DNA from: Deltaproteobacteria bacterium
GTDB lineage: Bacteria; UBA10199; JACPAL01; GCA-016699445
Length of the DNA stretch: 64,000 nt
Assembly (NCBI GenBank): GCA_016699445.1
Contig: CP064976.1
Coordinates: 1,897,125 to 1,961,124, forward strand
Direction of reading: 5' to 3'
Below are positions 3,095 to 21,761 of the stretch, piece after piece. Each line of letters opens with the position of its first letter. Position 1 is the stretch's first letter. The translations under genes and the position numbers were made by a program. Under the pieces are notes generated by a model. That model was not told the origin of the DNA. It was given only the letters and a program-made list of their open reading frames with translations, and did no database searches.

Positions 3095-4327
3095 ATGTCA
3101 ATTCCTCGTTTATTACAGTCACAATTCCCTCATTTTTTAGGAAAATTAATTTTTATTTATGGTCCCAGGCAGGTGGGTAAGACGTTTATTATTACCGAAT
3201 ATTTTAAGCCGGACTGGCATTTAAATATGGATATAGCCGAAGATCGAAAGATTTTTAGAGAGTTTCCCAGTCGACTAAAAAATTGGATAGAGACACAGGT
3301 AGGTCTAAAAAAAACGATTTCATTTAAAGATAGAAAAGTCGTTTTTATTGATGAAGTTCATAAGGTAAAAGGCTGGAGAAATCTTTTGAAAGGGGCTTTT
3401 GATCAATCAGGGCATCTTGTTCAGTTGGTAGCTTCAGGGTCATCCGCTGTACAGCTTAGAAAGCAGGATCAAGGGGATAGTTTGGCTGGCCGTGCCGCAT
3501 GGCTTGAGATGACACCGGTTACTTTTCGCGAATATGTTTTGAGTCGGATGGATATTAAATTGCCTCCTGTCTGGAATTTTCAAAAAGATCTTTTGAGTGA
3601 TCATGTGCGTAAAGTGCTCCCTTTTCAAAAAGAGCTGAGACTTCATTGGGAAAATTTTAGCCGCTTCGGGAGTTTCCCTGATAATCTTGTCAGTCAATCT
3701 CAGGAATTTTATTCTCAATGGTTAAAAGATTATACGCAGGCCATGCTAGAAAGAGATTTGAAGGATCTTCATATGGCTCGAGATGTGGATCGGGTTCATC
3801 ATGTTTTTGAATTGTTGCTTGAAGGTGTTGTGACTCCCTATGCGATACGAAGTATCGCTCAGGCTTTAGAAGTATCTCCAGATACAATTAAAAAAGATAT
3901 TCGAGCGATTCAGACGGTTATGTGGGGCAGTGATGTTGAAACATCGCACCTGTCCCGATCTCGGCAAATAAGAAAAGAAAAAAAGTTTTACCCGTCTGAT
4001 TGGTGTTTTTTGGATTATGTACTTCCTCAAGCGGAAGGTGCACGCTTTGAGTGTCAGGTGGTGAATCTTTTCCAAAGAACAACAGCCAAGCAATGCATGG
4101 GGTATTATAGGGATTATGAAAAAAGAGAAGTCGATGTGGTGATTCGTGATCGTAAGAACATTTATTTGGCAGCAGAAGTGAAAACAAAGCCTGCAAGCAA
4201 TCACCTCTCTTATTTCGTCAGACAATTTTCACCACGTGAAGCTTTTCTAATTGTTGAAGCTCCTGGAATTTTTGAAAAGAGAGATGATTATTTCGTCGTG
4301 AGCGCTGAGCTCTTGGCTGTGCTTTAA
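3095..4327 (+). CDS. COG1373 family protein: AAA+ ATPase with C-terminal DUF4143 (predicted PD-(D/E)xK-like), paralog 1
   Basis: Walker A GPRQVGKTF and Walker B VVFIDEV. The C-terminal EVDVVI ... AAEVK block is typical of DUF4143. The start was moved to the ATG at 3095; the ORF-track start at 2957 overlaps the upstream gene. Confidence 0.8.
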   Translation: MSIPRLLQSQFPHFLGKLIFIYGPRQVGKTFIITEYFKPDWHLNMDIAEDRKIFREFPSRLKNWIETQVGLKKTISFKDRKVVFIDEVHKVKGWRNLLKGAFDQSGHLVQLVASGSSAVQLRKQDQGDSLAGRAAWLEMTPVTFREYVLSRMDIKLPPVWNFQKDLLSDHVRKVLPFQKELRLHWENFSRFGSFPDNLVSQSQEFYSQWLKDYTQAMLERDLKDLHMARDVDRVHHVFELLLEGVVTPYAIRSIAQALEVSPDTIKKDIRAIQTVMWGSDVETSHLSRSRQIRKEKKFYPSDWCFLDYVLPQAEGARFECQVVNLFQRTTAKQCMGYYRDYEKREVDVVIRDRKNIYLAAEVKTKPASNHLSYFVRQFSPREAFLIVEAPGIFEKRDDYFVVSAELLAVL

Positions 4328-8427: not shown

Positions 8428-10055
8428 ATGATTCTTTCGCTTCTTTCAGGTTTGATTTCTGCATTCAGTTTGCCCACTTCGTTTGGAAAACTATGGCCTG
8501 ATCTTGGGTTTTTATCCTGGTTTTCGTTGGTTCCGCTTTACCTTTCTATTCGAAAAAAAAGAGCTCAAGGTAGTTTTTTAAAAGGGTTTGTGTTTGGTGT
8601 TTTTTATTTTGGAACGTCACTTTACTGGATCACGATTGCTCTTTTCCGATATGGAGATGTGCCGTTTTTGGGGAGTGTAGGCGCTTTGATGGTCTTGTCT
8701 TGTGTTCTGTCGATTTTTACGGGTTTGATCACATATTTTTCTGTGTGGGTGCATCGTCGCGGTGGGCCTATTTTTTGGGCTTTTCCATTGAGTTGGGTGA
8801 GTTTTGAATTTTTGCGAAACTATTTTCCTTTTCAAGGATTTCCTTGGGCCAATCTGGCTTATAGTCAAAGATCTTTTGGCGAGTTGATTCAGTCGCTCGA
8901 TATTTTTGGGGTTTATGGAATTATTTTTATTATCGTCCTGATTAATGCCTCTTTGGGTGAGGTGATTTATTTTTTTATTCGAGAATGGATGGATAATGAA
9001 GAGGTTGTTGGCCACAAAAAATGGGGTTCTCCCTGGGTGGCAGTTGTTATTTCCATTTTGATGATGGTGATATTGTGTTTTTATGGAAATTTTCGTCAAA
9101 AAGAAGTGCGTGAACTCATTTCGAAAAATTCTTTTTTGCGCGTCGGTCTTGTGCAGGGCAATGTTTCCCAAGATGAAAAGTGGTTAGAAGATAATGTTGA
9201 TTCGATTATTCAAAGACACATTTTTTTATCGGAAGAGGTGCAGAAGGAAAGTCCTCAATTAATCATCTGGCCCGAGTCGTCATTTCCAACGGTTATTCCA
9301 CCGGAGAAAACAGAAATTGAACTTTTGAAAAATATCCAAGCTCCTTTGCTGATGGGAATGCTGACTTATGATGGTGTCATGCCGGATGACTGGCCGCCAC
9401 CATCACCACAATCTTATGAAGGGGAGTCGTTTCAGATGCATAATGGGGCGGCGTTGATTGGAGCGGGAGGTCATGTTCAGGCTTGGTATTTTAAAAAACA
9501 TTTAGTGCCGATGGGAGAGTATATTCCTTTTAAAAAGCTGTTTTTCTTTATGGATAAAATTGTGCCTGCTGCGAGTGATTTTGTGCCTGGAAAAGATTTT
9601 CATTTGTTAACTATCGAAAATCATTCGTTTGGTGTGACGATTTGTTATGAAGATCTTTTCCGGAAATCAGTCGTACATTCACAAAAAATGGAGCTGATTT
9701 TTTGGTTAATCTCACCAATGATGCTTGGTACGATCAATCATCGGCTCTCTATCAACATTTTGATTTTTCAAGATTTCGAGCGATTGAAAATCGCCGATCG
9801 ATGGTACGAGTGACCAATACCGGCATTTCAGGCGTCTTTAGTCCAACAGGTGACGTTATTGATTCTCTCACACCGTTTCATGAAGAGACAAAAGTGATTG
9901 CCGTTCCGCTGGTAAAAATAGAAACTTTTTATCAAAAATACGGAGACCTCTTTGCTTGGGCTTGTGTTACATTTTTAGTTTTGTTACTTGGAATTTCTTT
10001 TTTACATAAGGATGAAACATGCAGAACGATGTCAAAAGAAAGCTTGAAGATTTAA
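8428..10055 (+). pseudogene. lnt: apolipoprotein N-acyltransferase Lnt, frameshifted in this assembly
   Basis: 8428..9813 holds the membrane domain and the CN-hydrolase N-part (GLVQGNV, IIWPES, VTICYEDLF). 9702..10055 holds the C-part (LTNDAWY, RAIENRRSMVRVTNTGIS). They rejoin if the A6 run at 9683-9688 is A7. The T6 run at 9998-10003 may also be under-called, which would end lnt at a TAA just before the prfB RBS. Confidence 0.8.
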
Positions 10056-11116: not shown

Positions 11117-11232
11117 TGATGTTCTCAAAATGAGGAAAAGATTCCCCTTTCTCTGTAGTTATCCACAATTTCAAAAACTATAAATAATATATAATTCAAA
11201 TAGTTAAGTCGGTGCCTGGCACCAGTGTTATT

Positions 11233-11248
11233 TGGCATATGTATTGCT
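11233..11248 (+). promoter_or_regulatory. sigma-54-type -24/-12 promoter candidate (TGGCAT-N5-TTGCT)
   Basis: It fits TGGCAC-N5-TTGCW, with GG at -24 and GC at -12. It ends about 28 bp upstream of the lipoprotein ATG at 11276. A GGTGCC-T-GGCACC palindrome lies at 11211-11223. Confidence 0.35.
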
Positions 11249-11275
11249 TTGGATAAGGATCCTAGGGACAAAACT

Positions 11276-14203
11276 ATGAAAAAATTATCATTTTATGCAC
11301 TCCTTCTTACCCTTCACCTGACCCTCTTAGTGGGTTGTTCTGGAAGTGGGGCGCCTACCGGAGGCCAGCAAACGAATCTCACACCACCAGCGGGCTTAAC
11401 GTGTACACCTTCTTCAGGAGCGAGAGGGGATAGAGTGACATGTCAAGGGCTGACGCAAACAGAAGGTTGCAATATATTATTTGATACACAGTTGGTCCCA
11501 CGTTCGGTCATTACGTTTGCAGCTTCTGGTTCGAGTACAACATTGGGTGCGTCTTCAGTGGGTGGAAATAATTTTACCTTTCCCATTCCTCCCGCAGCGA
11601 ATGGTCTTTATCATGTAAAAAAAGTTTGTGGCGATCAGATGACGACTTTGGCTCAAGTGTCGGTTGTCAATCGTGGGACTACTTCAGGTAGTGGTGGTAG
11701 CAGTGTTCCTCCATCTCAATATGCGGAATGTTCTGCTGGAAGCGATCAATGTGGCGTGAATCAAGTGTGTCGCGAAAATCACTGTGTTCCCTCGTGTAAT
11801 ACTGCTTATGATTGCGGCAGTGGTCAAATCTGCCAAAATTTTCAGTGTGTGGATAACACTCATATTGAGTGTGGTGACGCTGCCCATCCTGCAGCTTGTA
11901 GTAACGGGCTTGTTTGTTATCATGGACAGTGTAATCCCTGTCTGACTTCAGATCCGAGCCAATGTTCTCGGGACCAACCTGTGGCTTATCGGGGGAATAT
12001 TTGTCGGACAACCTCTTCAACATCATCTCCTATTTTAGGATTGTGCGGTTCTTGTGATAACACTTCACAATGTGGAGCAGGGCTTGCGTGTGTCTCAGGA
12101 AGATGCGGTGCTTGTACTACTAATTCCCAGTGCAATGCAGGAAACTACTGCAGTGCTGGTACTTGTAGAGACTCAGGTGTTAATAATGCACGTGTTAATT
12201 TTTCTGTGACCCAAGCTCCAAGGTCGACAAGCCTTTTAAGGCTTTCTTGGACTATTGAAGGTATTCAAACAGCTTCTATTCAAGATGCCTATGTCTATGG
12301 CCCTTTTGGAGTGAGTGATTGTTCAAATGTATTAAAAACATCTGAAAATGCAGACTACATCAGTAGTGAATTGCCACTGGCAAATGGGACGCCTTGTGTA
12401 AGTACTACAGACTCAAATGGCCGTACGACATGTGTCTCCGATACAGTTGCTCATGTGTTGTCAATTTCTTCTCTGGATCCAGTAACAAGTCGTGACACAC
12501 CGCCTGCAGCAGATTCCTCGCTTGCACATCCTACAGAGCCAGCAGGGATATTGCCTGGTCCAAGTCCAAGTATGACATGCCGTATTCCTTTAAGAGGTCA
12601 GCTTCAAAGCACTGTCTATACAAGAATGAAAGTGAGCCCTTCTGTTTTTCGTCTAGTTATTAAAACGCTGGATGGTCAGATTTTTATAGGGGAGAGTCGC
12701 TATACAGCTGATGGTGCTGATTTACATGTGGAAGATGTCAATATAGATTATACTAGACCTCAGTTTACAATTCGGGGTTCGTATACAAGATCTAGTGATG
12801 GAATACCTAGTTTTGATGGATGTCTTGGCGGAACGTACTCAGATAATTCAGATACAGCAGGTGTGGGAACGGTCATTTTCACTAAAACTTGTTTGTTTCC
12901 TACTAATGGCGATCTGCCAATAGTTTCTATTAATGTTCCTACAGCCATACCAGGTGTTATTTCTTCGGAAAAACAAATCGGATTTGATTGTTATTATGAC
13001 TCTGAAGATACATTTTTTAACTTTCAAAATGTGTATGCATCAGGGGCAATATGTGCCAATCATGATCAAATTAGTTCTTTAGCTGGACAAACCTTACATC
13101 TCTGTCCTGACGGGAGTCTTCAGTTAACAACGCATATTCGGAGAGCTTGTAATATTAACGTGAACGGTGAGCCTCTCTTTGAGACTCCAAAAAATAATCC
13201 ATGGTTTGTCAAATTTCTAGTATCTCAGTATTCAGCTGCAGGAGGTTGTTCCGAAACAACTGGCTTGATCAATGTAGATGGTAGTGTTCGGTCTGGTCTT
13301 CAAGTATTACCTTCTTCTGGTGAAATACAATTTGATAATCGTCAGACAAGGAATCTTAGTTGTAATTCTTACCAGATGGCTATTACAGATGGGCCATCCT
13401 TTGACATTGAAACACCATTCTTTACGGGAGATGCCTTAATTCAAGTGGTCAAAAATTTTAATGCTACAAATTGGTCTTATGATTACGTTTTATCTGATAC
13501 TTATTGGGATGGAGGTACTGATTTACAGTATTGCGCTAGACCAGGAGGTCTTCTTGGTGAGTCTGGTGTATGGCTCTATCTTCGTGATCATGACCGCATT
13601 GAAAGACATTTAGATGTTCCTTTTGGAAATACTCCAGATGGTTTATATTGTAGTTTTGGTGGAGGAAATTACCATAGTAGCGACGATGGTGTAACTGGCT
13701 GTTCCAAGTATAATGGTCATTTAGTGGCTGATATTCAAACTAGAGGGGTTACCTCCTTTGATGTTAGTTGTTGTGCATATGGTGAATGGTCTCATGGTGG
13801 AGTGGAAAGGGATCCTCCTCTAGATGGAATTCAGGGACACTATGGGGAACAGGCAGGTTCTGTATGTGCTCCGGGTGGCAGATTGTTTCGATGGAGTTAT
13901 AACTCTGTACCACCTATTAGTCCTTCAGGTGGAGCTGTATCAAATCCCTTTGATCATGTTATCTATGGAGAGGTTGTTCGATGTGGAATTATGGCTCCAG
14001 GTATTTTAGCTGGCCCTGGAACACGCACTAGTGTTGCCTTTGACTTTACAAGACCTATGAATGGTCGCTGTGATTATCCGGATAGAGATCACGTGGATCC
14101 TGATGACTCAGATCAAAGTGATTGGCCTCTACTATGGCATGGTTACCCCGTATTGCCTTTAGGGACGACCTACCCTTTAGGTATATATACTGCACCTCGA
14201 TAG
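11276..14203 (+). CDS. large secreted lipoprotein (~975 aa) with an N-proximal block of cysteine-rich repeats and a C-terminal domain without recognisable family
   Basis: Signal peptide plus lipobox LLVGC|SGSG. Residues ~150-320 carry at least six C-x(3-5)-C-x(4-6)-C-x(3-4)-C repeats, for example QCGAGLACVSGRCGAC and QCNAGNYCSAGTC. The start was moved to MKKLSF behind the SD AGGGA. Confidence 0.7.
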   Translation: MKKLSFYALLLTLHLTLLVGCSGSGAPTGGQQTNLTPPAGLTCTPSSGARGDRVTCQGLTQTEGCNILFDTQLVPRSVITFAASGSSTTLGASSVGGNNFTFPIPPAANGLYHVKKVCGDQMTTLAQVSVVNRGTTSGSGGSSVPPSQYAECSAGSDQCGVNQVCRENHCVPSCNTAYDCGSGQICQNFQCVDNTHIECGDAAHPAACSNGLVCYHGQCNPCLTSDPSQCSRDQPVAYRGNICRTTSSTSSPILGLCGSCDNTSQCGAGLACVSGRCGACTTNSQCNAGNYCSAGTCRDSGVNNARVNFSVTQAPRSTSLLRLSWTIEGIQTASIQDAYVYGPFGVSDCSNVLKTSENADYISSELPLANGTPCVSTTDSNGRTTCVSDTVAHVLSISSLDPVTSRDTPPAADSSLAHPTEPAGILPGPSPSMTCRIPLRGQLQSTVYTRMKVSPSVFRLVIKTLDGQIFIGESRYTADGADLHVEDVNIDYTRPQFTIRGSYTRSSDGIPSFDGCLGGTYSDNSDTAGVGTVIFTKTCLFPTNGDLPIVSINVPTAIPGVISSEKQIGFDCYYDSEDTFFNFQNVYASGAICANHDQISSLAGQTLHLCPDGSLQLTTHIRRACNINVNGEPLFETPKNNPWFVKFLVSQYSAAGGCSETTGLINVDGSVRSGLQVLPSSGEIQFDNRQTRNLSCNSYQMAITDGPSFDIETPFFTGDALIQVVKNFNATNWSYDYVLSDTYWDGGTDLQYCARPGGLLGESGVWLYLRDHDRIERHLDVPFGNTPDGLYCSFGGGNYHSSDDGVTGCSKYNGHLVADIQTRGVTSFDVSCCAYGEWSHGGVERDPPLDGIQGHYGEQAGSVCAPGGRLFRWSYNSVPPISPSGGAVSNPFDHVIYGEVVRCGIMAPGILAGPGTRTSVAFDFTRPMNGRCDYPDRDHVDPDDSDQSDWPLLWHGYPVLPLGTTYPLGIYTAPR

Positions 14204-14230
14204 ATCTTAAGAAGAGATATTTCTTTAAAA

Positions 14231-14262
14231 AAGCCGGAGGCTTCCCTCCGGCTTTTTTGTTT
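14231..14262 (+). terminator. rho-independent terminator after the Cys-rich lipoprotein
   Basis: GCCGGAGG-CTTC-CCTCCGGC followed by TTTTTTGTTTT. Confidence 0.65.
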
Positions 14263-14328
14263 TCTGCCGACGACGCCTGACTTGAATATTGACTTGCAGC
14301 TTCATCTTGGACAAAACCACCCCCTTCT

Positions 14329-15726
14329 ATGGAACCAACTACAACATCTAGCGAATACGAAAATCGGTTGAAACGTTTGGAAGAGCTCAAAGCTCAAGGG
14401 ATCAATCCTTATCCAAATGGATTTCAAGTTACGCACACAACACACGAGATTAGTGAAAATTATGAAAAGCTTTCGGGTGAAGAGCTCGAAAAAATCGAAA
14501 CGACTTTTAGTCTAGCGGGTCGTATCATGATGGTACGAGCTTTTGGAAAAGCTGCGTTTATTCGCATCAAAGATCGTAAAGGGTATTTGCAGCTTTTTAT
14601 CGATCAAAAAGGTGTCGATGCTGAAACGTTTGCTCTCTACAAAAATCTCGATATCGGAGATTTTATTTTTGTTTCTGGAAAATTATTTCGCACCAAGACC
14701 AACGAGCTGACCTTGCGCATTGAAACTCTCAAGTTTGCTGGAAAAGCTTTACGACCCTTACCTGAAAAATGGCATGGGCTTCATGATGTCGAAATTCGTT
14801 ACCGTCAGCGGTATCTGGATTTGGTCGCCAATGATGATGTGCAAAATGTTTTTCGTAAGCGTGCCAAAATCGTCCAGCAGATCCGAGAGTTTTTTATCGA
14901 TCGGGATTATATCGAGGTGGAGACTCCTATGATGCATCCTTTGGCAGGAGGGGCTGCGGCCAAGCCTTTTGTCACGCATCATAATACTCTCAATATGGAA
15001 CTGTATTTGCGCATTGCCCCTGAGCTTTATTTAAAACGCTTGGTTGTGGGTGGCTTCGAGCGCGTTTTTGAAATCAATCGTAATTTTCGTAATGAAGGCA
15101 TTTCGACTCAACACAATCCAGAATTTACGATGATTGAGTTTTACCAATCGTATGCGACGTTTGAGGATTTGATCACGTTGACCGAAACTCTTTTTTCACA
15201 ATTAGCTCAAAAAGTGTGTGGAAGTGATGTGGTTCCGTACCAAGGAAAGGAACTTTCTTTTAAAGCTCCTTTTGCGCGCATGACTCATGAAGAAATGATG
15301 AGAGTAGGAGAGAAGAATATTATTCAGCCTACTTTTGTGACGGATTTCCCTCTGAAAGATTCTCCTCTGGCTCGAAAGAATGAAAAGAATGGTGAGATCT
15401 GTGATCGGTTTGAGCTTTATGTAGCCGGCATGGAAGTGGCCAATGCATTTTCAGAGCTGAATGATCCCATAGATCAAAAAGAACGTTTTCTGGCTCAAGT
15501 GGAAGCCAAGAAAAAAGGTGATGATGAAGCCATGCCTTTTGATGAGGATTATATTCGTGCTTTGGAGCATGGGCTTCCTCCGACCGCTGGAGAAGGGATT
15601 GGGATTGATCGTCTTGTCATGCTTTTGACAGATCAACCTTCCATTCGTGACGTCATCTTGTTCCCTCTGATGAGGCCTGAACACAAGACAGAAAATAAAC
15701 CAGAAGATAAGATGCCTCAAAGCTAA
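14329..15726 (+). CDS. lysS: lysine--tRNA ligase (class II)
   Basis: Full-length LysS with class II motifs: FRNEGIS, ELYVAGMEVANAFSELNDP, GLPPTAGEGIGIDRLVMLL. Confidence 0.95.
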   Translation: MEPTTTSSEYENRLKRLEELKAQGINPYPNGFQVTHTTHEISENYEKLSGEELEKIETTFSLAGRIMMVRAFGKAAFIRIKDRKGYLQLFIDQKGVDAETFALYKNLDIGDFIFVSGKLFRTKTNELTLRIETLKFAGKALRPLPEKWHGLHDVEIRYRQRYLDLVANDDVQNVFRKRAKIVQQIREFFIDRDYIEVETPMMHPLAGGAAAKPFVTHHNTLNMELYLRIAPELYLKRLVVGGFERVFEINRNFRNEGISTQHNPEFTMIEFYQSYATFEDLITLTETLFSQLAQKVCGSDVVPYQGKELSFKAPFARMTHEEMMRVGEKNIIQPTFVTDFPLKDSPLARKNEKNGEICDRFELYVAGMEVANAFSELNDPIDQKERFLAQVEAKKKGDDEAMPFDEDYIRALEHGLPPTAGEGIGIDRLVMLLTDQPSIRDVILFPLMRPEHKTENKPEDKMPQS

Positions 15727-15738
15727 TGTCCTTTGAAA
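15721..15738. repeat. direct repeat, copy 1 (AGCTAATGTCCTTTGAAA), spanning the lysS stop
   Basis: Identical 18-mer at 16315..16332. 20 of 21 bases match if the preceding three bases are included. Confidence 0.8.
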
Positions 15739-15837
15739 AAATATTCTTAAAGAAATTTTTGATGAAGCAAAAATTGCGGTCAGGGACCGCAAAATGTTTG
15801 AGCTATATACCTGTAAATAAATATCTAGACATAGGAT

Positions 15838-15875
15838 TTGTCATTGCGAGTCGCGTAAGCGACGTGGCAATCTCC
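15838..15875. repeat. left inverted repeat of the GIY-YIG cassette, itself a hairpin
   Basis: TTGTCATTGCGAGTCGCGTAAGCGACGTGGCAATCTCC. It can fold internally as ATTGC..GTCGC-GTAA-GCGAC..GCAAT. Confidence 0.55.
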
Positions 15876-15883
15876 TGAATTCT

Positions 15884-16126
15884 ATGAATAAGGGTTACTC
15901 AGTTTATATCATGAGCAATCAAAATAATACGGTTCTCTATACAGGTGTAACCAACAATCTTGAGCGTCGCATTGGAGAACATAAAAATGGAGTGGGAGGA
16001 TATTTTACATCAAAATATCAGGTTACCAAACTGGTTTACTATGAAACAACCAATCGGGTTGAAGAAGCTCTCGCCCGAGAGAAACAAATTAAAAAGGTTC
16101 TCGGAAAAGAAGATTGGCCTCATTGA
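15884..16126 (+). CDS. small GIY-YIG nuclease-superfamily protein (YhbQ/COG2827-like)
   Basis: VYIMSNQNNTVLYTGVTNNLERRIGEH...KLVYYE is the GIY-YIG core at the N-terminus of an 80-aa protein. There is no convincing SD. Confidence 0.6.
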   Translation: MNKGYSVYIMSNQNNTVLYTGVTNNLERRIGEHKNGVGGYFTSKYQVTKLVYYETTNRVEEALAREKQIKKVLGKEDWPH

Positions 16127-16170
16127 ATCTTCAAATCCAAAGTGGAAAGATTTGAGCTAATGATTATCAT

Positions 16171-16200
16171 AAGATCGCCACGCTTCGCTCGCGATGACAA
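16171..16200. repeat. right inverted repeat of the GIY-YIG cassette
   Basis: The reverse complement TTGTCATCGCGAGCGAAGCGTGGCGATCTT matches the left repeat at about 29 of 30 positions, with two small gaps. Confidence 0.55.
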
Positions 16201-16314
16201 CACAAAGCATGTTTGTTTAATTATGTGCAGTTATATTAATTCAAAACTTATGGAGCTGCCTAAAAAAAAGAAATGCAGCAGTTTTTAGAAAAAGAAATGT
16301 TGAGATTAAAACAG

Positions 16315-16332
16315 AGCTAATGTCCTTTGAAA
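16315..16332. repeat. direct repeat, copy 2 (AGCTAATGTCCTTTGAAA), containing the lolC start codon
   Basis: Identical to 15721..15738. The ATG inside it at 16320 is the lolC start. Confidence 0.8.
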
Positions 16333-17539
16333 CTTTTATCGCCAAACGTTATTTTCAATTTTCGGGAAATCGTCCTCCGCTGTTGACGTTTTTGATTCGT
16401 ATCTCACTTTTTTCCATCGCTATTTCTGTGTTTGCCCTCGTGTTTGTTTTGTCGATCATGGAGGGTTTTGAGAAGGATTTTCAAAAACGTATTTTGGGAT
16501 TTCGTGCGCCGTTATTGGTGGTGGTCCAGGCTGATCAAGATATTTCGACTCTGGAAGAGGATTTGAAAAGATAAAATCAATTACCAGGGTTATTCCTTTT
16601 GTTGAAGGTGAAGCTATTATTCAGGCAGATAATGGAGTGACCTTAGGAATGCGTGTGCGAGGGATTGGTGAAAAGCCGGATGTGAGACGAGTCGGCGAGA
16701 TTGAGAGTCAAAAAGATTTTATCTCCAATTCGCTCCTATTGGGAGATGAATTGGCTTCTACACTTCGGGTACATCCTGATTTTAACGAAAATATGAAATT
16801 GATTTTCCCTCTAGGAGATGTCGGGCCTACAGGGGATATGATTCCTCATGTCCGGGATGTGCATCTGACGGGTCTTTTTCATTCGGGGTATTATGATTTT
16901 GATCACAAATATGGGCTGATTTCCTATCAGGAGGCTCGCAAACTTTTTGGGGTAGAAGGGAAGCAAGGGTTTGAAGTCTGGTTTGAAAATATTCATGAGA
17001 CGGAAAATATTAAGAAGCAGGTTCAATCGATTATAGCTCAAGGCTCGCCGCTCGCCGCTCAAAGTAATATTGAGACCTGGACGGATCAAAATCCAAAACT
17101 TTTTGCTGCTTTGAGACTAGAGAGAATAGGGATGGGGGCTTTGTTGGGTGTTTTGCTCTTGGTGGCTTCGTTTAATATCTTCAGCGTATTGTCTCTGACT
17201 GTCGTCGAAAAGAAAAAAGACATGGGATTGTTGAAAGCTTTAGGTTTGAGGCAAAAAGCGATCCGAAAAATTTTTCTTTCTTATGCACTGAGATTAGCTT
17301 TTTGGGGTGGAGGTGTGGGTGGGGTTTTGGGTTTGATCAGTGTTTTAATAGGGATTCGTTATCCTATAGATCTGCCTCCTACTTATTATATCGATAAACT
17401 TCCTCTTTCGTTTTCGCCTTCTTCACTTTTGTTTGTTTTGATTGTGCCTTTTATTGTTTTGGCAGCTGCCTACTACCCTGCAGCAAAAGCCTGTGAAGCT
17501 GATCCTATCACGGCATTGCAAAGAGAGGGGCTGGAATGA
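16320..17539 (+). pseudogene. lolC: lipoprotein-releasing system permease LolC/LolE family (FtsX-like), frameshifted in this assembly
   Basis: 16320..16574 is TM1. 16637..17539 carries the periplasmic MacB-like domain and the FtsX C-terminal TM bundle. The frames rejoin if the A4 run at 16566-16569 is A5 (EEDLKKIKSITRVIPFVEGEAI). Confidence 0.8.
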
Positions 17540-18771
17540 AGTTTTGGGATGTCATTTTAGCCTGGAGATTTTTTAGAGATTCAAGCCGTGGACGTTTTTT
17601 TTCTGTCTCGTTTCGAGTGGCTGTTTTGGGAATGAGTTTTGGTGTGATGGCTTTGCTTTTATCGCTGGCGATTACGGAAGGTTTTACAAAAGAATATGAA
17701 CGTGCCGTATTGGGCTCTCATCCCCATATCGTGATCAATTCGGAAGATGATGTTAATAATCCTGATGCTATAGAAAAAATTATTCAAGCATCAGCTCAGA
17801 AGATTTCGATTCCAATTAAAAATATAGAACCTGTTATTTATCGGGAAGGGATGTTAATTGGAGGAAAAAGTATTAAGGGATTGGTTTTGAAGGGTGTTCC
17901 TCCTCACTACTTTGAAAAATCTGGAATCAAAATTATTTCACGTGCTGTAGAAAAAAATGAAAATCATCTTCCTGAAATATTTTTGGGAAAAGCCGTCGCT
18001 GAGGAGTCTGGTATTAAAACAGGGATAGTAAAACTTCTCTTCCCTAAAACCATTTCTCAAAAATCTTTGGGAAAAATGGAAATCAGTCCAAAAGATCTTA
18101 AAAGTTTTTTTCTCGCCGGCATTTTTGAGACTGGTGTGTATGAAATGGATTCCACTTTTGGAATTTTAGATTTGGAAACCGCTAAAAACTTTTTTCATTT
18201 GGGAGAGACTATTTCGGGATTTGAAACCTGGATAGAAAATCCACAAGAGGCCAGTCGATTGGTCGAAAAGATTAGAGAAGAGCTCTCTTTTCCCTACGAG
18301 GTTTTGAGCTGGCGCGAGATTAATGAAAATATTTTCAAAGCCATGGAAACTGAAAAGTGGATGTTTGGAGTGTTAATGTTGGTGTTGGTAGTTGTCGCCT
18401 CACTTAATGTATTAGGGACACTGATGATGCTGCTTCTCAAGAAAAGACGAGAGATCGCTATTTTACGAACATTAGGCTACAGCTGGTCTCGCTTGAGAAA
18501 AGTCTTTTTAATTGATGGGCTGTTGATAGGAATGACAGGAACAGGTTTGGGAATTTTTTTTGGGTTGCTTTGCGAATTTATCTTGAAGCACTGGCAGCCT
18601 TTTGCGTTGGATCCTGAGGTCTATTTTTTAAAAACTGTTCCTGTTACTTTTTGTTGGGATCATATTTTTTTAGTTTTTGGAGCGTCGTTGGGGATTGGAG
18701 TTTTGGGTTGTATGCTGACTCTGAAAAAAATTTCCCAAGTATCCACGCTGACTATTTTGGAGAAGTCATGA
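17536..18771 (+). CDS. lolE: lipoprotein-releasing system permease LolE/LolC family (FtsX-like)
   Basis: A second FtsX-family permease (411 aa) with N-terminal TM, periplasmic domain and C-terminal TM bundle. It overlaps lolC by 4 nt and lolD by ATGA. Confidence 0.8.
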   Translation: MKFWDVILAWRFFRDSSRGRFFSVSFRVAVLGMSFGVMALLLSLAITEGFTKEYERAVLGSHPHIVINSEDDVNNPDAIEKIIQASAQKISIPIKNIEPVIYREGMLIGGKSIKGLVLKGVPPHYFEKSGIKIISRAVEKNENHLPEIFLGKAVAEESGIKTGIVKLLFPKTISQKSLGKMEISPKDLKSFFLAGIFETGVYEMDSTFGILDLETAKNFFHLGETISGFETWIENPQEASRLVEKIREELSFPYEVLSWREINENIFKAMETEKWMFGVLMLVLVVVASLNVLGTLMMLLLKKRREIAILRTLGYSWSRLRKVFLIDGLLIGMTGTGLGIFFGLLCEFILKHWQPFALDPEVYFLKTVPVTFCWDHIFLVFGASLGIGVLGCMLTLKKISQVSTLTILEKS

Positions 18772-19433
18772 ACCTTTTAGAATGTCGCGAAGTCAAAAAG
18801 TCATATGGACAGGGCGTGTCGCGCACAGAAGTGCTCAAAGGCATCTCTCTTCAGATTGAGAAGAAGGAGCGATCGGCTATTTTGGGAGCATCGGGCGCTG
18901 GAAAGAGTACGTTGCTGCATATTTTAAGTGCTTTGGAGAAGCCAGATGAAGGCGATGTGCTGTTTGAGGGAAAATCTCTAAAGTCTCTTAAAGATGATCA
19001 GCTTTCTGAATTTCGTAATCGTTCTATTGGTTTTGTTTTTCAGTTTCATCATCTGATGCCAGAATTTACTGCTTTAGAAAATGCCGCAATGCCGCTTTTG
19101 ATGCGTGGAGATGCATTGGCTTATGATAAAGCGAGACATTATTTAAAAAAACTAGGAGTTGATCATCGCAGCGATCATCGTCCTTCAGAAATGTCGGGGG
19201 GTGAACAGCAGCGCGTCGCGGTGGCACGTGCTCTGATCACTGAACCTCAAATTCTTTTTGCTGATGAGCCCACGGGCAATTTGGATCACGAAAATAGCCA
19301 GAAATTGACGGACCTTTTGATGAAGATCAATGAAGAGTTTTCAGTGGCTCTCGTTGTCGTGACTCATAATGAAGAAGTGGCAAAATACTTTTCCAGAATA
19401 ATTCGACTTGATGATGGGAGACTTCAGGGGTAG
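18768..19433 (+). CDS. lolD: lipoprotein-releasing system ATP-binding protein LolD
   Basis: ABC ATPase with Walker A GASGAGKST, signature LSGGEQQRVAVARAL and Walker B ILFADEPTGNLD. The start was moved to the ATG at 18768. Confidence 0.9.
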   Translation: MNLLECREVKKSYGQGVSRTEVLKGISLQIEKKERSAILGASGAGKSTLLHILSALEKPDEGDVLFEGKSLKSLKDDQLSEFRNRSIGFVFQFHHLMPEFTALENAAMPLLMRGDALAYDKARHYLKKLGVDHRSDHRPSEMSGGEQQRVAVARALITEPQILFADEPTGNLDHENSQKLTDLLMKINEEFSVALVVVTHNEEVAKYFSRIIRLDDGRLQG

Positions 19434-19448
19434 CGCCCTTCCTTCATC

Positions 19449-21761
19449 ATGAAATTCATGAAACTACAATTGTGGAGTTCGCAGTCTCTTTTGAAGGCAT
19501 TTCTTTTGGCGTTTCTCATTTTTGCCACTCCTCTTCATGCAGAATCTGTTGTTAAAGAGATTCAAGTAAATGGAAACACCCGTGTTGAAACACAGGCGAT
19601 TATTGGTTCTTTGGAGACACGGATTGGTTCGGCTTATTCTGCTGAAAAAATTCAACGGGATTTGAAAACCCTTTATAAGATGGGTTCTTTTGCGGATGTG
19701 ACTTTTGAAAAAGTGAATGTCGCAGGCGGGACTAAGCTGGTTGTGACAGTTGTAGAACGCTCCAGTATTACAAAAATCAGTTTTGAAGGAAATAAAAAGG
19801 TCAAAGAAGACAAGCTGCGAGAGTTGAGTGAGGTGAAAGCTTTTTCTCCGCTGGATTCTGTACGTCTGTCCAATACCATTCGTAAGATTCGGGAACATTA
19901 TGCCAAAGAAGGGTATCATTTGGCGGAGATTTCACCGGAATTCAAAAAAGTTCCTACGACAGCAGATTCTCATATAGAAAATGAAGAATTGATTTTTCAT
20001 ATTCATGAACATGAACCTGTCAGAATTGCCCGTGTTAATTTTATTGGGAATAAGGTTTTTTCAGATGATGATCTAAGAAGTAAGATCAAAACAAAGTCTC
20101 GTAGTTATTTTTCGTGGCTGACCGGTGGTGGAAAATTTCAGGAAGAAATGGTCAAGCGAGACAGTGCTTTCCTCGTCTACTTTTATCAAAATAATGGTTA
20201 CCTGAAGGTTAAGGTGGGATCTCCCAAGGTTTATCTTTCGCGTGATCGTAAGTCGATTACGGTGACTTATCATATTACAGAAGGAGAGAAGTATAAGGTT
20301 AAACAGGTGGAGGTGCAGGGAGATATTCTGACCACCAAGCAAGAGATGGATTCCAAGCTGGTTTTGAAAAGTGGCCAATTCTATTCGCGGCAGAAGGTGG
20401 AAGAAGATCTTCAGCTATTGTCGGCCCTTTACGGAGATCAGGGATATGCGTTTGCCAATATCAATCCTGTTATTATTCCCAATGATGAAGAACGTACGGC
20501 GGATGTGACTTATACAGTACAGCGCGGACCACGCGTATATATTGAAAAGATTAATATTTCGGGAAATGCGGTGACGCGAGATAAGGTTATTCGTCGTGAG
20601 CTGAAGATTAAAGAGAACACTCTTTATAATGAGTCCCGCCTACGAGAGTCTCAACAAAAAGTTCAGGCTTTAGGATATTTTGAAGAAGTTAATTTTGCGA
20701 CACCTCGAGGCTCTTCTGATGACAGAATCCAAATTAATATTTCGGTAAAAGAAAGGCAGACAGGGCAATTTTCCATTGGAGCTGGTTTTTCTTCTGTTGA
20801 AAAATTTATCCTGACAGCTTCTTTGGCCAAGGAAAACTTTTTGGGTTATGGTGTTAGTGGTCAGTTTTCTGTGGAAGCTTCTTCTCGCCGTCAGCTCTTT
20901 GTTTTATCTTTGGAAGATCCCTACTTTTTAGATTCTCAATGGATTTTAGGAATCTCGGGATTTCGCACGATCAATGTCTATTCGGATTTTGATCGTAAAT
21001 CTTTTGGGGGTAGTGCTACTTTAGGTCACCGTATTTTTGACAATTCGACTTTCCGTCTGACGTATCAGGCTGAAGATGTTAATATTAGTGATTTTTCGAC
21101 AACAGTACCGGCTGTTTTTGCCAATAATCTTTCCGGATTGACTTCGAGTATTGGTGTTTCTTTGATTCGGGATACGCGGAATAATCGTCTCTTTCCTTCC
21201 TCTGGAATGTATCAAAGTATAAGCTCTGAATTTGCGGGAGTGGGCGGCGACAATGATTTTGTGAGAGTGACGGAAAATTTTAGATACTACCAGCCTCTCT
21301 GGAAAAAAATTGTTGGGAAGCTCAATTTTACAGCCGCTCAGATTGAAAGTACCAATTCAGATCCAGTCCCTTTGTTTGAGAGATATTTTATGGGAGGAGT
21401 AAATTCTCTGAGGGGATATTATTTGCGTGATGTGGGCCCGAGTGTGCGTGTTCCCATTTCCTCTATTGGAGGCGATCATCGTTTTGTTTTTGGCGGTAAT
21501 AAAATGTTGCAGCTGAATTTGGAGCTTGAGCTCCCTCTTTATGATCCGGCCGGATTTAAAGCGGTGACATTCTTCGATACGGGAAATTCTTTTTCAGAAG
21601 AAGAGAATTTTTCTGTGAAGCATCTGAGAAGTGATTATGGTTTTGGACTGCGTTGGAACTCTCCGTTTGGACCTCTTCGTTTTGAATGGGGTCTCCCTAT
21701 CAATCGCCAACCAGGCGAAAGTCCGGTTATTTTCAATTTTACTATTGGAAGCTTTTTCTAG
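19449..21761 (+). CDS. bamA: outer membrane protein assembly factor BamA
   Basis: Signal peptide, five POTRA-like repeats and a C-terminal Omp85 barrel ending in the aromatic residue (..GSFF). Confidence 0.9.
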   Translation: MKFMKLQLWSSQSLLKAFLLAFLIFATPLHAESVVKEIQVNGNTRVETQAIIGSLETRIGSAYSAEKIQRDLKTLYKMGSFADVTFEKVNVAGGTKLVVTVVERSSITKISFEGNKKVKEDKLRELSEVKAFSPLDSVRLSNTIRKIREHYAKEGYHLAEISPEFKKVPTTADSHIENEELIFHIHEHEPVRIARVNFIGNKVFSDDDLRSKIKTKSRSYFSWLTGGGKFQEEMVKRDSAFLVYFYQNNGYLKVKVGSPKVYLSRDRKSITVTYHITEGEKYKVKQVEVQGDILTTKQEMDSKLVLKSGQFYSRQKVEEDLQLLSALYGDQGYAFANINPVIIPNDEERTADVTYTVQRGPRVYIEKINISGNAVTRDKVIRRELKIKENTLYNESRLRESQQKVQALGYFEEVNFATPRGSSDDRIQINISVKERQTGQFSIGAGFSSVEKFILTASLAKENFLGYGVSGQFSVEASSRRQLFVLSLEDPYFLDSQWILGISGFRTINVYSDFDRKSFGGSATLGHRIFDNSTFRLTYQAEDVNISDFSTTVPAVFANNLSGLTSSIGVSLIRDTRNNRLFPSSGMYQSISSEFAGVGGDNDFVRVTENFRYYQPLWKKIVGKLNFTAAQIESTNSDPVPLFERYFMGGVNSLRGYYLRDVGPSVRVPISSIGGDHRFVFGGNKMLQLNLELELPLYDPAGFKAVTFFDTGNSFSEEENFSVKHLRSDYGFGLRWNSPFGPLRFEWGLPINRQPGESPVIFNFTIGSFF

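Follow-up and report, generated by a model that had tools for sequence, protein, structure and literature searches.

The window analyzed here is a stretch of 64,000 nucleotides (nt) of contig CP064976.1 from a Deltaproteobacteria bacterium, and its point of interest is the junction between lysS and the lolC-like gene that follows it, where 576 bp of sequence are enclosed between two copies of an 18-bp direct repeat. The insert consists of one small ssnA-like gene for a GIY-YIG nuclease, two inward-facing hairpins, the longer inverted arms to which the hairpins belong, and a spacer on each side (Table 1). The favored explanation, held at a probability of about 0.6, is that a solitary hairpin-ssnA-hairpin cassette of the Ssn family was gained at the overlapping lysS-lolC junction and was carried into it on a linear DNA fragment. 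The two parts of this explanation differ in strength. The identity of the insert and its gain are highly probable from sequence comparison, and the route of integration is put forward tentatively, at somewhat less than even odds.

Table 1. Features of the lysS-lolC junction, in window coordinates. L081, related contig with intact reading frames; L082, homologous cassette in a metagenome-assembled genome (MAG) of the Chlamydiae; aa, amino acids; ORF, open reading frame; ssDNA, single-stranded DNA.
Feature	Position	Strand	Remarks
lysS, lysine-tRNA ligase, 465 aa	14329..15726	+	Pfam tRNA-synt_2 E=2e-90
Left 18-bp repeat copy, AGCTAATGTCCTTTGAAA	15721..15738	+	lysS stop TAA 15724-15726, with overlapping ATG (TAATG); 21 nt if counted from 15718
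50-codon ORF	15726..15878	+	from the duplicated lolC ATG through the left arm, stop 5 nt before the ssnA ATG; putative relay
Left spacer, 51 nt	15739..15789		no similarity to any compared sequence
Left inverted arm, ~88 nt	15790..15878	+	partly conserved in the L082 cassette
Left Ssn-type hairpin	15840..15872	+	GTC-ATTGC-gaGTCGCgtaaGCGACgtg-GCAAT-C; ssDNA fold -8.6 kcal/mol, z=-2.6
ssnA-like gene	15884..16160	+	single-domain GIY-YIG protein, 92 aa in L081; stop TAA 16158-16160
53-codon ORF (L081)	16160..16320	+	from an ATG overlapping the ssnA stop (TAATG) to a TAA overlapping the lolC ATG (TAATG); putative relay
Right inverted arm, ~86 nt	16167..16252	-	72% nucleotide identity to the L082 arm
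Right Ssn-type hairpin	16173..16198	-	GTC-ATCGC-gagcgaagcgtg-GCGAT-C
Right spacer, 62 nt	16253..16314		no similarity to any compared sequence
Right 18-bp repeat copy	16315..16332	+	lolC start ATG 16320-16322 and first 13 nt of lolC
lolC-like lipoprotein-release permease	16320..17539	+	406 aa, intact in L081

The 18-mer occurs exactly twice in the window, and none of 100 dinucleotide-preserving shuffles of the window contained two matches. A preliminary description of this DNA, prepared from its letters alone, had placed both copies correctly and had recognized that the left copy contains the lysS stop and the right copy the lolC start. The two copies are identical at 18/18 positions, and the repeat grows to 21 nt when one mismatch is allowed (15718-15738 and 16312-16332). 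Its edges are otherwise sharp, with no homology prolonged outside the 18-mer, and a flank alignment test detected no larger, decayed duplication beyond it (p>0.2). Several smaller likenesses are present around the repeat. A third copy of AGCTAATG lies at the ssnA stop (16155-16162), and AGCTA is found at 15721, at the outer end of the left arm (15801), at the ssnA stop (16155), and at 16315. The duplicated junction is itself a small palindrome at 15718-15735, CAAAG-CTAATGTC-CTTTG. The left end of the cassette equals the repeat at 17/24 positions (repeat family D1), a likeness with weak statistics that may represent microhomology.

The closest protein homologue of the insert gene, P0001 (96% identity), is encoded on the Logan contig L081, which is collinear with window positions 5984-26156 at 98.4% identity. 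Between 15650 and 16660 the two sequences show only four single-base differences, all of which lie in A-runs that are shorter in the window, and every other 1-nt indel in the 20-kb alignment likewise falls in an A or T run of which the window has the shorter version (the single-base indels fall at window 7225, 9655, 10053, 16090, 16104, 16267, 16565, and 23291). This pattern indicates that the window assembly undercalls homopolymers systematically. Relative to L081, the window ssnA lacks one A in each of two A-runs (~16090 and ~16104), which leaves an 80-aa ORF at 15884-16126, and the window lolC is split into ORFs of 84 aa and 300 aa by an A-run undercall at ~16565. Because L081 has both genes intact and the A-runs are shorter in the window, the 80-aa ORF and the split lolC are, on this alignment, homopolymer errors of a long-read assembly. 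Spurious frameshifts in ssnA and lolC, and probably others along the window, result from these undercalls, and the NCBI annotation of the 2.75-Mb MAG contig retains, of lolC, the 300-aa fragment alone. The insert itself is very unlikely to be an assembly artifact, because it is carried by two assemblies that differ at ~1.6% of aligned positions. The preliminary description was thus right about a 576-bp insert with a GIY-YIG gene (PF01541), and its length of 80 aa is to be replaced by 92 aa.

Assignment of the gene relies on sequence similarity to a recently characterized family. The window ORF matches PF01541 with E=2e-18 (66.7 bits, residues 5-75), and no family other than GIY-YIG exceeds the Pfam cut-off in the insert, the other two matches being weak ones to related nuclease families. 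A tblastn search of a 7.3-Gb database with P0001 recovered the chromosomal ssnA of Neisseria gonorrhoeae as one 94-aa ORF with E=8e-12, below the E<1e-10 that Chenal et al. 2025 use to define Ssn homology (PMC11893778). The matched gene is flanked by canonical NTS repeats, and a pairwise comparison with its product gives 47% identity over 86 aa (E=3e-27). Catalytic residues are kept, with Y8, Y19, and E66 aligning to Y6, Y17, and E64 of the Neisseria enzyme Nm SsnA, in which mutation of any of the three abolished cleavage (PMC11893778). The bona fide ssnA locus for these comparisons was taken from N. gonorrhoeae chromosomes filed in PLSDB; the records NZ_CP119140.1 (L168) and NZ_CP119142.1 are complete chromosomes of 2.17 Mb that are held there as plasmids. 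Other resources added little: NCBIfam gave sub-threshold matches only and has no model specific to cd10448, the PADLOC defense-system models did not match the insert protein, a PDB sequence search returned only distant UPF0213 structures (1zg2 and 1ywl), and an Rfam scan of 15000-17000 at E<=1 gave no match.

Nm SsnA is a site-specific endonuclease of 94 aa consisting of a single GIY-YIG domain (Chenal et al. 2025, PMC11893778). Its binding to the NTS hairpin repeat is restricted to ssDNA, and cleavage takes place a few nucleotides upstream of the repeat; cutting depends most on the three bases 5' of the palindrome, and binding on the C directly 3' of the palindrome (PMC11893778). For the characterized Ssn enzymes, cutting is confined to ssDNA beside their own hairpin, and they showed no activity on double-stranded DNA (dsDNA) (PMC11893778). 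SsnA homologues (CDD cd10448) are widespread, 42% of them with related hairpins, the SRMs, on both sides, and Chenal et al. liken this hairpin-ssnA-hairpin layout to an insertion sequence (IS), with mobility only hypothesized (PMC11893778).

The hairpins of the insert conform to this arrangement. Both face inward and retain the GTC 5' and the C 3' of the palindrome, which is the layout of the NTS, and the right stem differs from the left by one compensatory change, T:A to C:G. The pattern GTC-X5-N6..50-rc(X5)-C (rc, reverse complement) was found 386 times in the surroundings of 83 homologous loci as against ~90 in shuffles, a ~4-fold excess. The GTC-palindrome-C layout with covarying stems is present in 79/83 of these loci, which together display at least 10 recurrent compensatory stem variants (ATTGC, ATTCT, ATCGC, ATGCT, ACCCT, and others), and inverted hairpin copies stand on both sides of the gene in most of them. 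The published degenerate SRM sequence, HGTCWYN(0-2)YYVSBRHN(0-5)WNVSBRGN(0-2)RNCYNB, has no matches beyond chance in this material, and the present clade therefore uses a hairpin variant that the published motif misses. One further locus, L128, harbors a canonical Neisseria-type NTS, CGTCATTCCCGCGAAGGCGGGAATCCCC, at 173-201; the ssnA homologue of this locus, 2.3 kb away, is itself flanked by hairpins of another type. With the published SRM search string excepted, every Ssn-family character tested at the level of sequence is present in the insert.

The hairpins are embedded in longer inverted arms. When the left flank is aligned with the reverse complement of the right, the score is 53, compared with a maximum of 32 in 1000 shuffles (p<0.001). 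The preliminary description had recognized inverted repeats of ~38 bp that are themselves hairpins. Imperfect inverted repeats are indeed present at 15838-15878 and 16167-16200, each with a palindrome, but they form part of arms of ~88 nt, and only the left one folds better than shuffled sequence (z -2.6 vs ~0). The spacers, which had been put at ~100 bp, are reduced to 51 and 62 nt, since the arms account for the remainder. They are unlike each other in direct or inverted orientation (p>0.2) and unlike the sequence beyond the repeats, and BLAST comparison with 170+ fetched loci yielded chance matches only. The left spacer contains a palindrome, TTGCGGTC-agg-GACCGCAA, at 15774-15792, with its last 3 nt in the left arm and a fold z of -4.2; a terminator scan finds it terminator-like on the minus strand only.

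The extent of the conserved unit can be estimated from the Chlamydiae MAG L082, which has a homologous cassette encoding a protein 78% identical to that of the window. Nucleotide identity is 75% in ssnA and 61% in the left arm, next to the value given for the right arm in Table 1, and falls to ~44% where the two can be aligned beyond the cassette, which is the background level. Because L082 aligns with the window only from ~15801 to ~16237, this unit is ~460 bp long. The occurrence of the homologous cassette, with conserved arms, in a MAG of another phylum indicates horizontal movement.

That the cassette was gained at this junction is shown by syntenic relatives, defined by the gene order lnt, prfB-like, large secreted protein, lysS, lolC, lolE, lolD, bamA, ompH. 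None of the five has an insert: lysS and lolC are separated by a 10-nt gap in L084 (LysS 90% identical) and by an 8-nt gap in L085 and L086 (LysS 77%), overlap by 4 nt in L087 (LysS 75%), and share a TAATG overlap in L179 (LolC 71%). In ~38 further, more distant genomes the two genes are also close, with 30 nt or less between them in most. The insert-free junctions have mutually different sequences and are therefore not scars of repeat-mediated deletion. The junction of L179, CAAAAATAATGTCCTTCGAA, equals the window repeat at 14/18 positions; the repeat is therefore native lysS-lolC junction sequence, and TAATG coupling before insertion is supported. The reconstructed empty site contains CCTCAAAGCTAATGTCCTTTGAAACTTTTATC. 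A search through LysS and LolC homologues for an empty-site allele in the same species returned the window genome and L081 only, the next relatives being 90% and 73% identical.

These comparisons bear out three proposals of the preliminary description, namely that the insert landed in the lysS-lolC junction, that TAATG coupling was ancestral, and that target sequence was duplicated. Possession of the same segment by relatives had been thought to signify an old feature; L081 does share it and relatives at 90% LysS identity lack it, which points to a recent event. The cassette was gained in a recent ancestor of this MAG and the L081 strain, with at least 18 bp of the native junction duplicated. 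Also in agreement with the preliminary description, neither the insert nor the surrounding DNA up to 10 kb away contains a transposase, integrase, or recombinase gene. Further copies of the inverted repeat had been considered likely to inform on mobility, and for this question the evidence covers the window: its 64 kb contain no other example of the hairpin motif, no second cassette, and no second GIY-YIG gene. On the gene sides of the junction, the 5' end of lolC is conserved in L084 and L179. LysS ends in a lineage-specific, Lys/Glu-rich tail of 14 aa, HKTENKPEDKMPQS, encoded at 15682-15723 and common to L081. All relatives examined are without this tail and end 10-15 aa earlier, with MRPEAKAH, MRHEQK, LRPAE, or LRPEK directly before the stop.

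The divergence between the window and L081 is a mosaic. It amounts to 6.5% across 12900-15490, a tract comprising the 3' part of the large secreted protein gene and lysS, and to 0.15% over 15490-21400. Dense substitutions stop at 15423; one more is found at 15585, and none follows before 16721. A recombination breakpoint can therefore be placed ~300 bp before the cassette. In Neisseria, incoming DNA that undergoes recombination is reportedly shortened by SsnA at its hairpins; the proximity of breakpoint and cassette is a single case and may be a coincidence.

Duplications flanking ssnA are not confined to the window. Seventy homologous loci with enough flank were compared after masking of family repeats, with mismatched pairs of upstream and downstream flanks serving as the null (maximum 28 in 1000, 99th percentile 22). 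Non-hairpin flanking repeats stand out in three loci, with scores of 37 in the window, 55 in L096, and 46 in L149, and a fourth, in L153, was seen in the unmasked analysis. In L096 the last 35-37 nt of the upstream gene are duplicated across a ATGAATGA stop/start overlap. In L149 the duplication involves hsdR (33 nt aligned, about 42 nt from the ATG) across an ATGA overlap with hsdS, and in L153 15-27 nt are duplicated in the promoter region of mutS. Such repeats are therefore seen in only ~4/70 loci, most loci having none. The three clearest cases (window, L096, and L149) all lie at overlapping gene junctions, a bias that could reflect a target preference and could equally reflect survivorship, both copies being kept by selection only at such junctions. 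Some of the differences between the two hsdR starts of L149 are synonymous (for Ser, AGT and TCC), which hints that the copies come from different alleles.

More generally, ssnA homologues occupy unrelated contexts, including an hsd operon, the mutS promoter, and the vicinity of an Mrr gene. A single ssnA protein in several genomic contexts was not found in the case of P0079 (L169-L178), from an Anaerolineales organism. This protein is represented by 56 contigs from many samples, of which 24 were read, and in all 10 places shown the gene has an Mrr-like restriction gene on one side and a NAGPA-domain gene on the other. P0079 ssnA behaves as a stable single-copy gene in its organism.

Host tolerance of the insertion may be related to two short ORFs that thread the insert. 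In L081, abutting ORFs cover the plus strand of the insert in the order lysS, TAATG, 50 codons, a 5-nt gap, ssnA, TAATG, 53 codons, TAATG, lolC. The 50-codon ORF stays open with P ~0.03 in shuffles. The 53-codon ORF, which is called as a gene in L081 (10279-10440) and is broken in the window by a run undercall at ~16267, does so with P ~0.01, and both together are obtained in 3.5e-4 of arm-shuffling trials. As real genes the two ORFs were rejected; they are translations of hairpin arms, and the part shared with L082 is in a different frame there. They would instead be survivors of selection for continued translation into lolCDE. Translation could plausibly be relayed through the insert into the lolCDE operon, and such a relay would account for the tolerance of the host. 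A parallel is found in L149 (2081-2674), where the first 14 codons of hsdR, in their duplicated copy, run in frame through two hairpins into ssnA.

The proposed course of events combines these elements. The cassette, flanked by an additional 51 and 62 nt, would have entered the overlapping TAATG junction, and the duplication would have allowed lysS to keep its stop and lolC its start. By analogy with its relatives, the 92-aa protein would cut ssDNA 5' of each hairpin; the predicted SsnA cuts, a single one in each strand and made only when the DNA is single-stranded, fall immediately left of 15840 on the top strand and immediately right of 16198 on the bottom strand. In the tentative route preferred here, host repair would have inserted a linear fragment, made up of the cassette and donor flanks, at a staggered break, with the repeat arising when the break was filled in. 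SsnA would at most have generated or trimmed the fragment, and would not have cut the target. This route is preferred because the spacers are unrelated to the arms, one of them containing a terminator-like palindrome for the opposite strand; because the characterized Ssn enzymes have no dsDNA or joining activity; because the target has no hairpin site; because P0079 ssnA is in one context in all 10 places shown; and because a recombination breakpoint lies 300 bp upstream. The preliminary description had attributed the staggered cut of the target to the GIY-YIG enzyme acting as a nickase; the biochemistry of the characterized Ssn enzymes, which cut only ssDNA at their own hairpin, does not support this.

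Autonomous transposition is the alternative that deserves the most attention, and it is rated as unlikely. SsnA would here act as an IS-like transposase that nicks the target strands ~18 nt apart, with joining and fill-in to follow. Inverted arms around a single nuclease gene resemble an IS, a comparison also raised by the Ssn authors (PMC11893778), and these arms are conserved between phyla. The long non-hairpin direct repeats of L096 (35 nt), L149, and L153 are far above the mismatched-pair null. On the other side, the repeats are separated from the arm ends by 51 and 62 nt of unrelated, non-inverted sequence. Repeat length ranges from 15 to 42 nt between loci, and only ~4/70 loci have such repeats. 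The characterized enzymes are hairpin-dependent, leave dsDNA uncut, and are not known to catalyze strand transfer; an Ssn hairpin site is missing from the target, the 64 kb contain no second copy, and the P0079 homologue keeps a single context in all 10 places shown, across many samples. A recombinase from elsewhere, an integrase or an Xer-type enzyme, might alternatively have integrated a circular form at an attachment site with the 18-mer as its core. Attachment-site recombination typically leaves direct repeats of 15-60 bp around the whole insert that rebuild gene ends, and the repeats here bracket the full 576 bp and not the arms. Such integration is nonetheless very improbable, given that no recombinase is encoded in the insert or within 10 kb, that the repeats flanking other ssnA loci are unrelated in sequence and length, and that the 18-mer has no dif-like or attC-like organization.

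The remaining alternatives concern homing and age. Homing, in which a free-standing gene encodes a GIY-YIG endonuclease that cuts the uninterrupted lysS-lolC junction in naive genomes and enters it through double-strand-break repair, would explain the GIY-YIG domain and the intergenic position between conserved genes, and the preliminary description had considered a homing-type element. This reading is scarcely credible for a protein of only 92 aa that has no DNA-binding domain, scores 16.5 bits against TIGR01453 (cut-off 56), and is clearly closest to Ssn enzymes, which leave dsDNA uncut; its homologues are in unrelated contexts, and target duplications are not a product of homing. The cassette might also be an old resident, ancestral to the lineage and lost from relatives by recombination between the repeats. 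Repeat-mediated deletion is precise and scarless, and L081 shares the insert. This history would nevertheless be quite surprising, as five insert-free relatives and ~38 distant genomes would need separate losses, the junctions of relatives differ from the 18-mer and from one another, and the repeat copies are still identical at 18/18 positions.

Several observations weigh against the favored explanation of a Ssn cassette joined to the junction by host repair. The repeat edges in L096 and L149 lie 5-16 nt outside inward-facing hairpins, about where SsnA is expected to cut; together with the long duplications at three other loci, these edges favor a mechanism encoded by the cassette over a host accident. 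The edges in L153 and in the window are not at the expected cut position. With regard to the hairpins, the right one folds weakly by itself (z ~0, ssDNA compared with shuffled sequence), and the published SRM sequence has 0 matches in the window and 1 in 84 sequences, with ~1.2 expected by chance. The nearest insert-free relative, L084, has a remodeled junction, so that the 18 or 21 nt given for the duplication come from a reconstruction. The designation of the spacers as donor flanks is a guess, the activity and specificity of the 92-aa protein are extrapolated from its relatives, and the relay of ORFs was noticed post hoc.

Among known systems, the closest are the NTS-ssnA-NTS and SRM-ssnA-SRM units of the Ssn family (Nm SsnA, cd10448; PMC11893778), with single-domain GIY-YIG proteins of ~92-94 aa that are 47% identical in the comparison made here and share the catalytic residues. 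The Neisseria NTS units are also alike in having hairpins on both sides of the gene and the succession of GTC, a palindrome starting with AT, and C. They differ in their stems, which are ATTCCC in Neisseria and ATTGC/ATCGC here; the loops here are longer, the SRM sequence is unmatched, and the arms extend ~50 nt past the hairpins. Pathogenic Neisseria possess hundreds of repeats, whereas this 64-kb stretch shows no repeat expansion. In contrast with the Neisseria units, for which the paper reports none, an insertion footprint is present here in the form of empty sites in relatives and a target duplication, the most useful of these differences.

Other mobile elements share single aspects of this organization. 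REP/BIME sequences with RAYT and the IS200/IS605 elements (HUH Y1) resemble the cassette in combining a small nuclease gene with subterminal hairpins read as ssDNA. The fold in the cassette is GIY-YIG and not HUH, and IS200/IS605 elements make no target duplication and have non-inverted ends, unlike the 18-bp duplication and inverted arms found here. The comparison with REP/RAYT and IS200/IS605 is drawn by the Ssn authors themselves (PMC11893778). Free-standing GIY-YIG homing genes (T4 Seg proteins, I-TevI relatives) have the same domain and are similarly wedged between conserved genes. Proteins of the T4 Seg/I-TevI type are longer than 200 aa, contain DNA-binding domains, and cleave dsDNA, and their genes spread by homing with no duplication of the target; the cassette differs from them in size (92 aa), in substrate, and in its lack of site specificity. 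The target duplications of Penelope-like retroelements vary in length. In these elements a GIY-YIG nuclease enables chromosomal integration (PMC8557442). They are eukaryotic, reverse-transcriptase-dependent, and kilobases long, and no such gene is present here. The Correia elements of Neisseria, which are miniature inverted-repeat elements, are similarly short, with inverted arms, and insert between the genes of operons with read-through. Correia elements are non-coding and produce a TA duplication by a transposase acting in trans, while the cassette carries its own nuclease gene and an 18-bp duplication. The imperfect ~88-nt inverted arms recall a classical IS, from which the cassette differs in having no DDE, HUH, serine, or tyrosine transposase and repeats that do not abut the arms.

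The locus provides a before-and-after picture, with coupled lysS and lolC in relatives and, in the window, a cassette and a duplicated junction with both genes whole. The cassette as an object is known from the Ssn family; the new part is its footprint and the recurrence at coupled junctions. Since the family was described only in 2025, the footprint is fresh evidence that Ssn cassettes move, and the window together with three further duplication loci makes their mobility directly testable. No follow-up literature on Ssn mobility or target duplications was found in the library searched. A more far-reaching proposal, at present doubtful, is that Ssn cassettes constitute a distinct, undescribed class of prokaryotic mobile elements. 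Such elements would consist of a ~90-aa GIY-YIG nuclease with inward hairpins as ends, generate duplications of 15-42 bp, and persist preferentially at overlapping stop/start junctions (TAATG here, ATGA in L149, ATGAATGA in L096), where gene ends are rebuilt and threaded ORFs keep translation coupled. If the cassettes are not self-mobile, the locus still illustrates an operon that tolerates insertion at an overlapping stop/start codon. A large clade of Ssn sites (GTCATTGCGAG...GCAATC) escapes the published motif, a point relevant to the mining of these enzymes as ssDNA tools.

Two features outside the junction are also of note. Relative to window position 10002, L081 contains ~98 bp of extra sequence (4025-4122) at the end of lnt or in the next intergenic region. 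Upstream of lysS, window 11225-14203 encodes a signal-peptide-like, Cys-rich protein of 992 aa with no Pfam family on record; the 3' part of its gene falls within the hyper-divergent tract and includes a 6-nt indel relative to L081 at 13458-13463.

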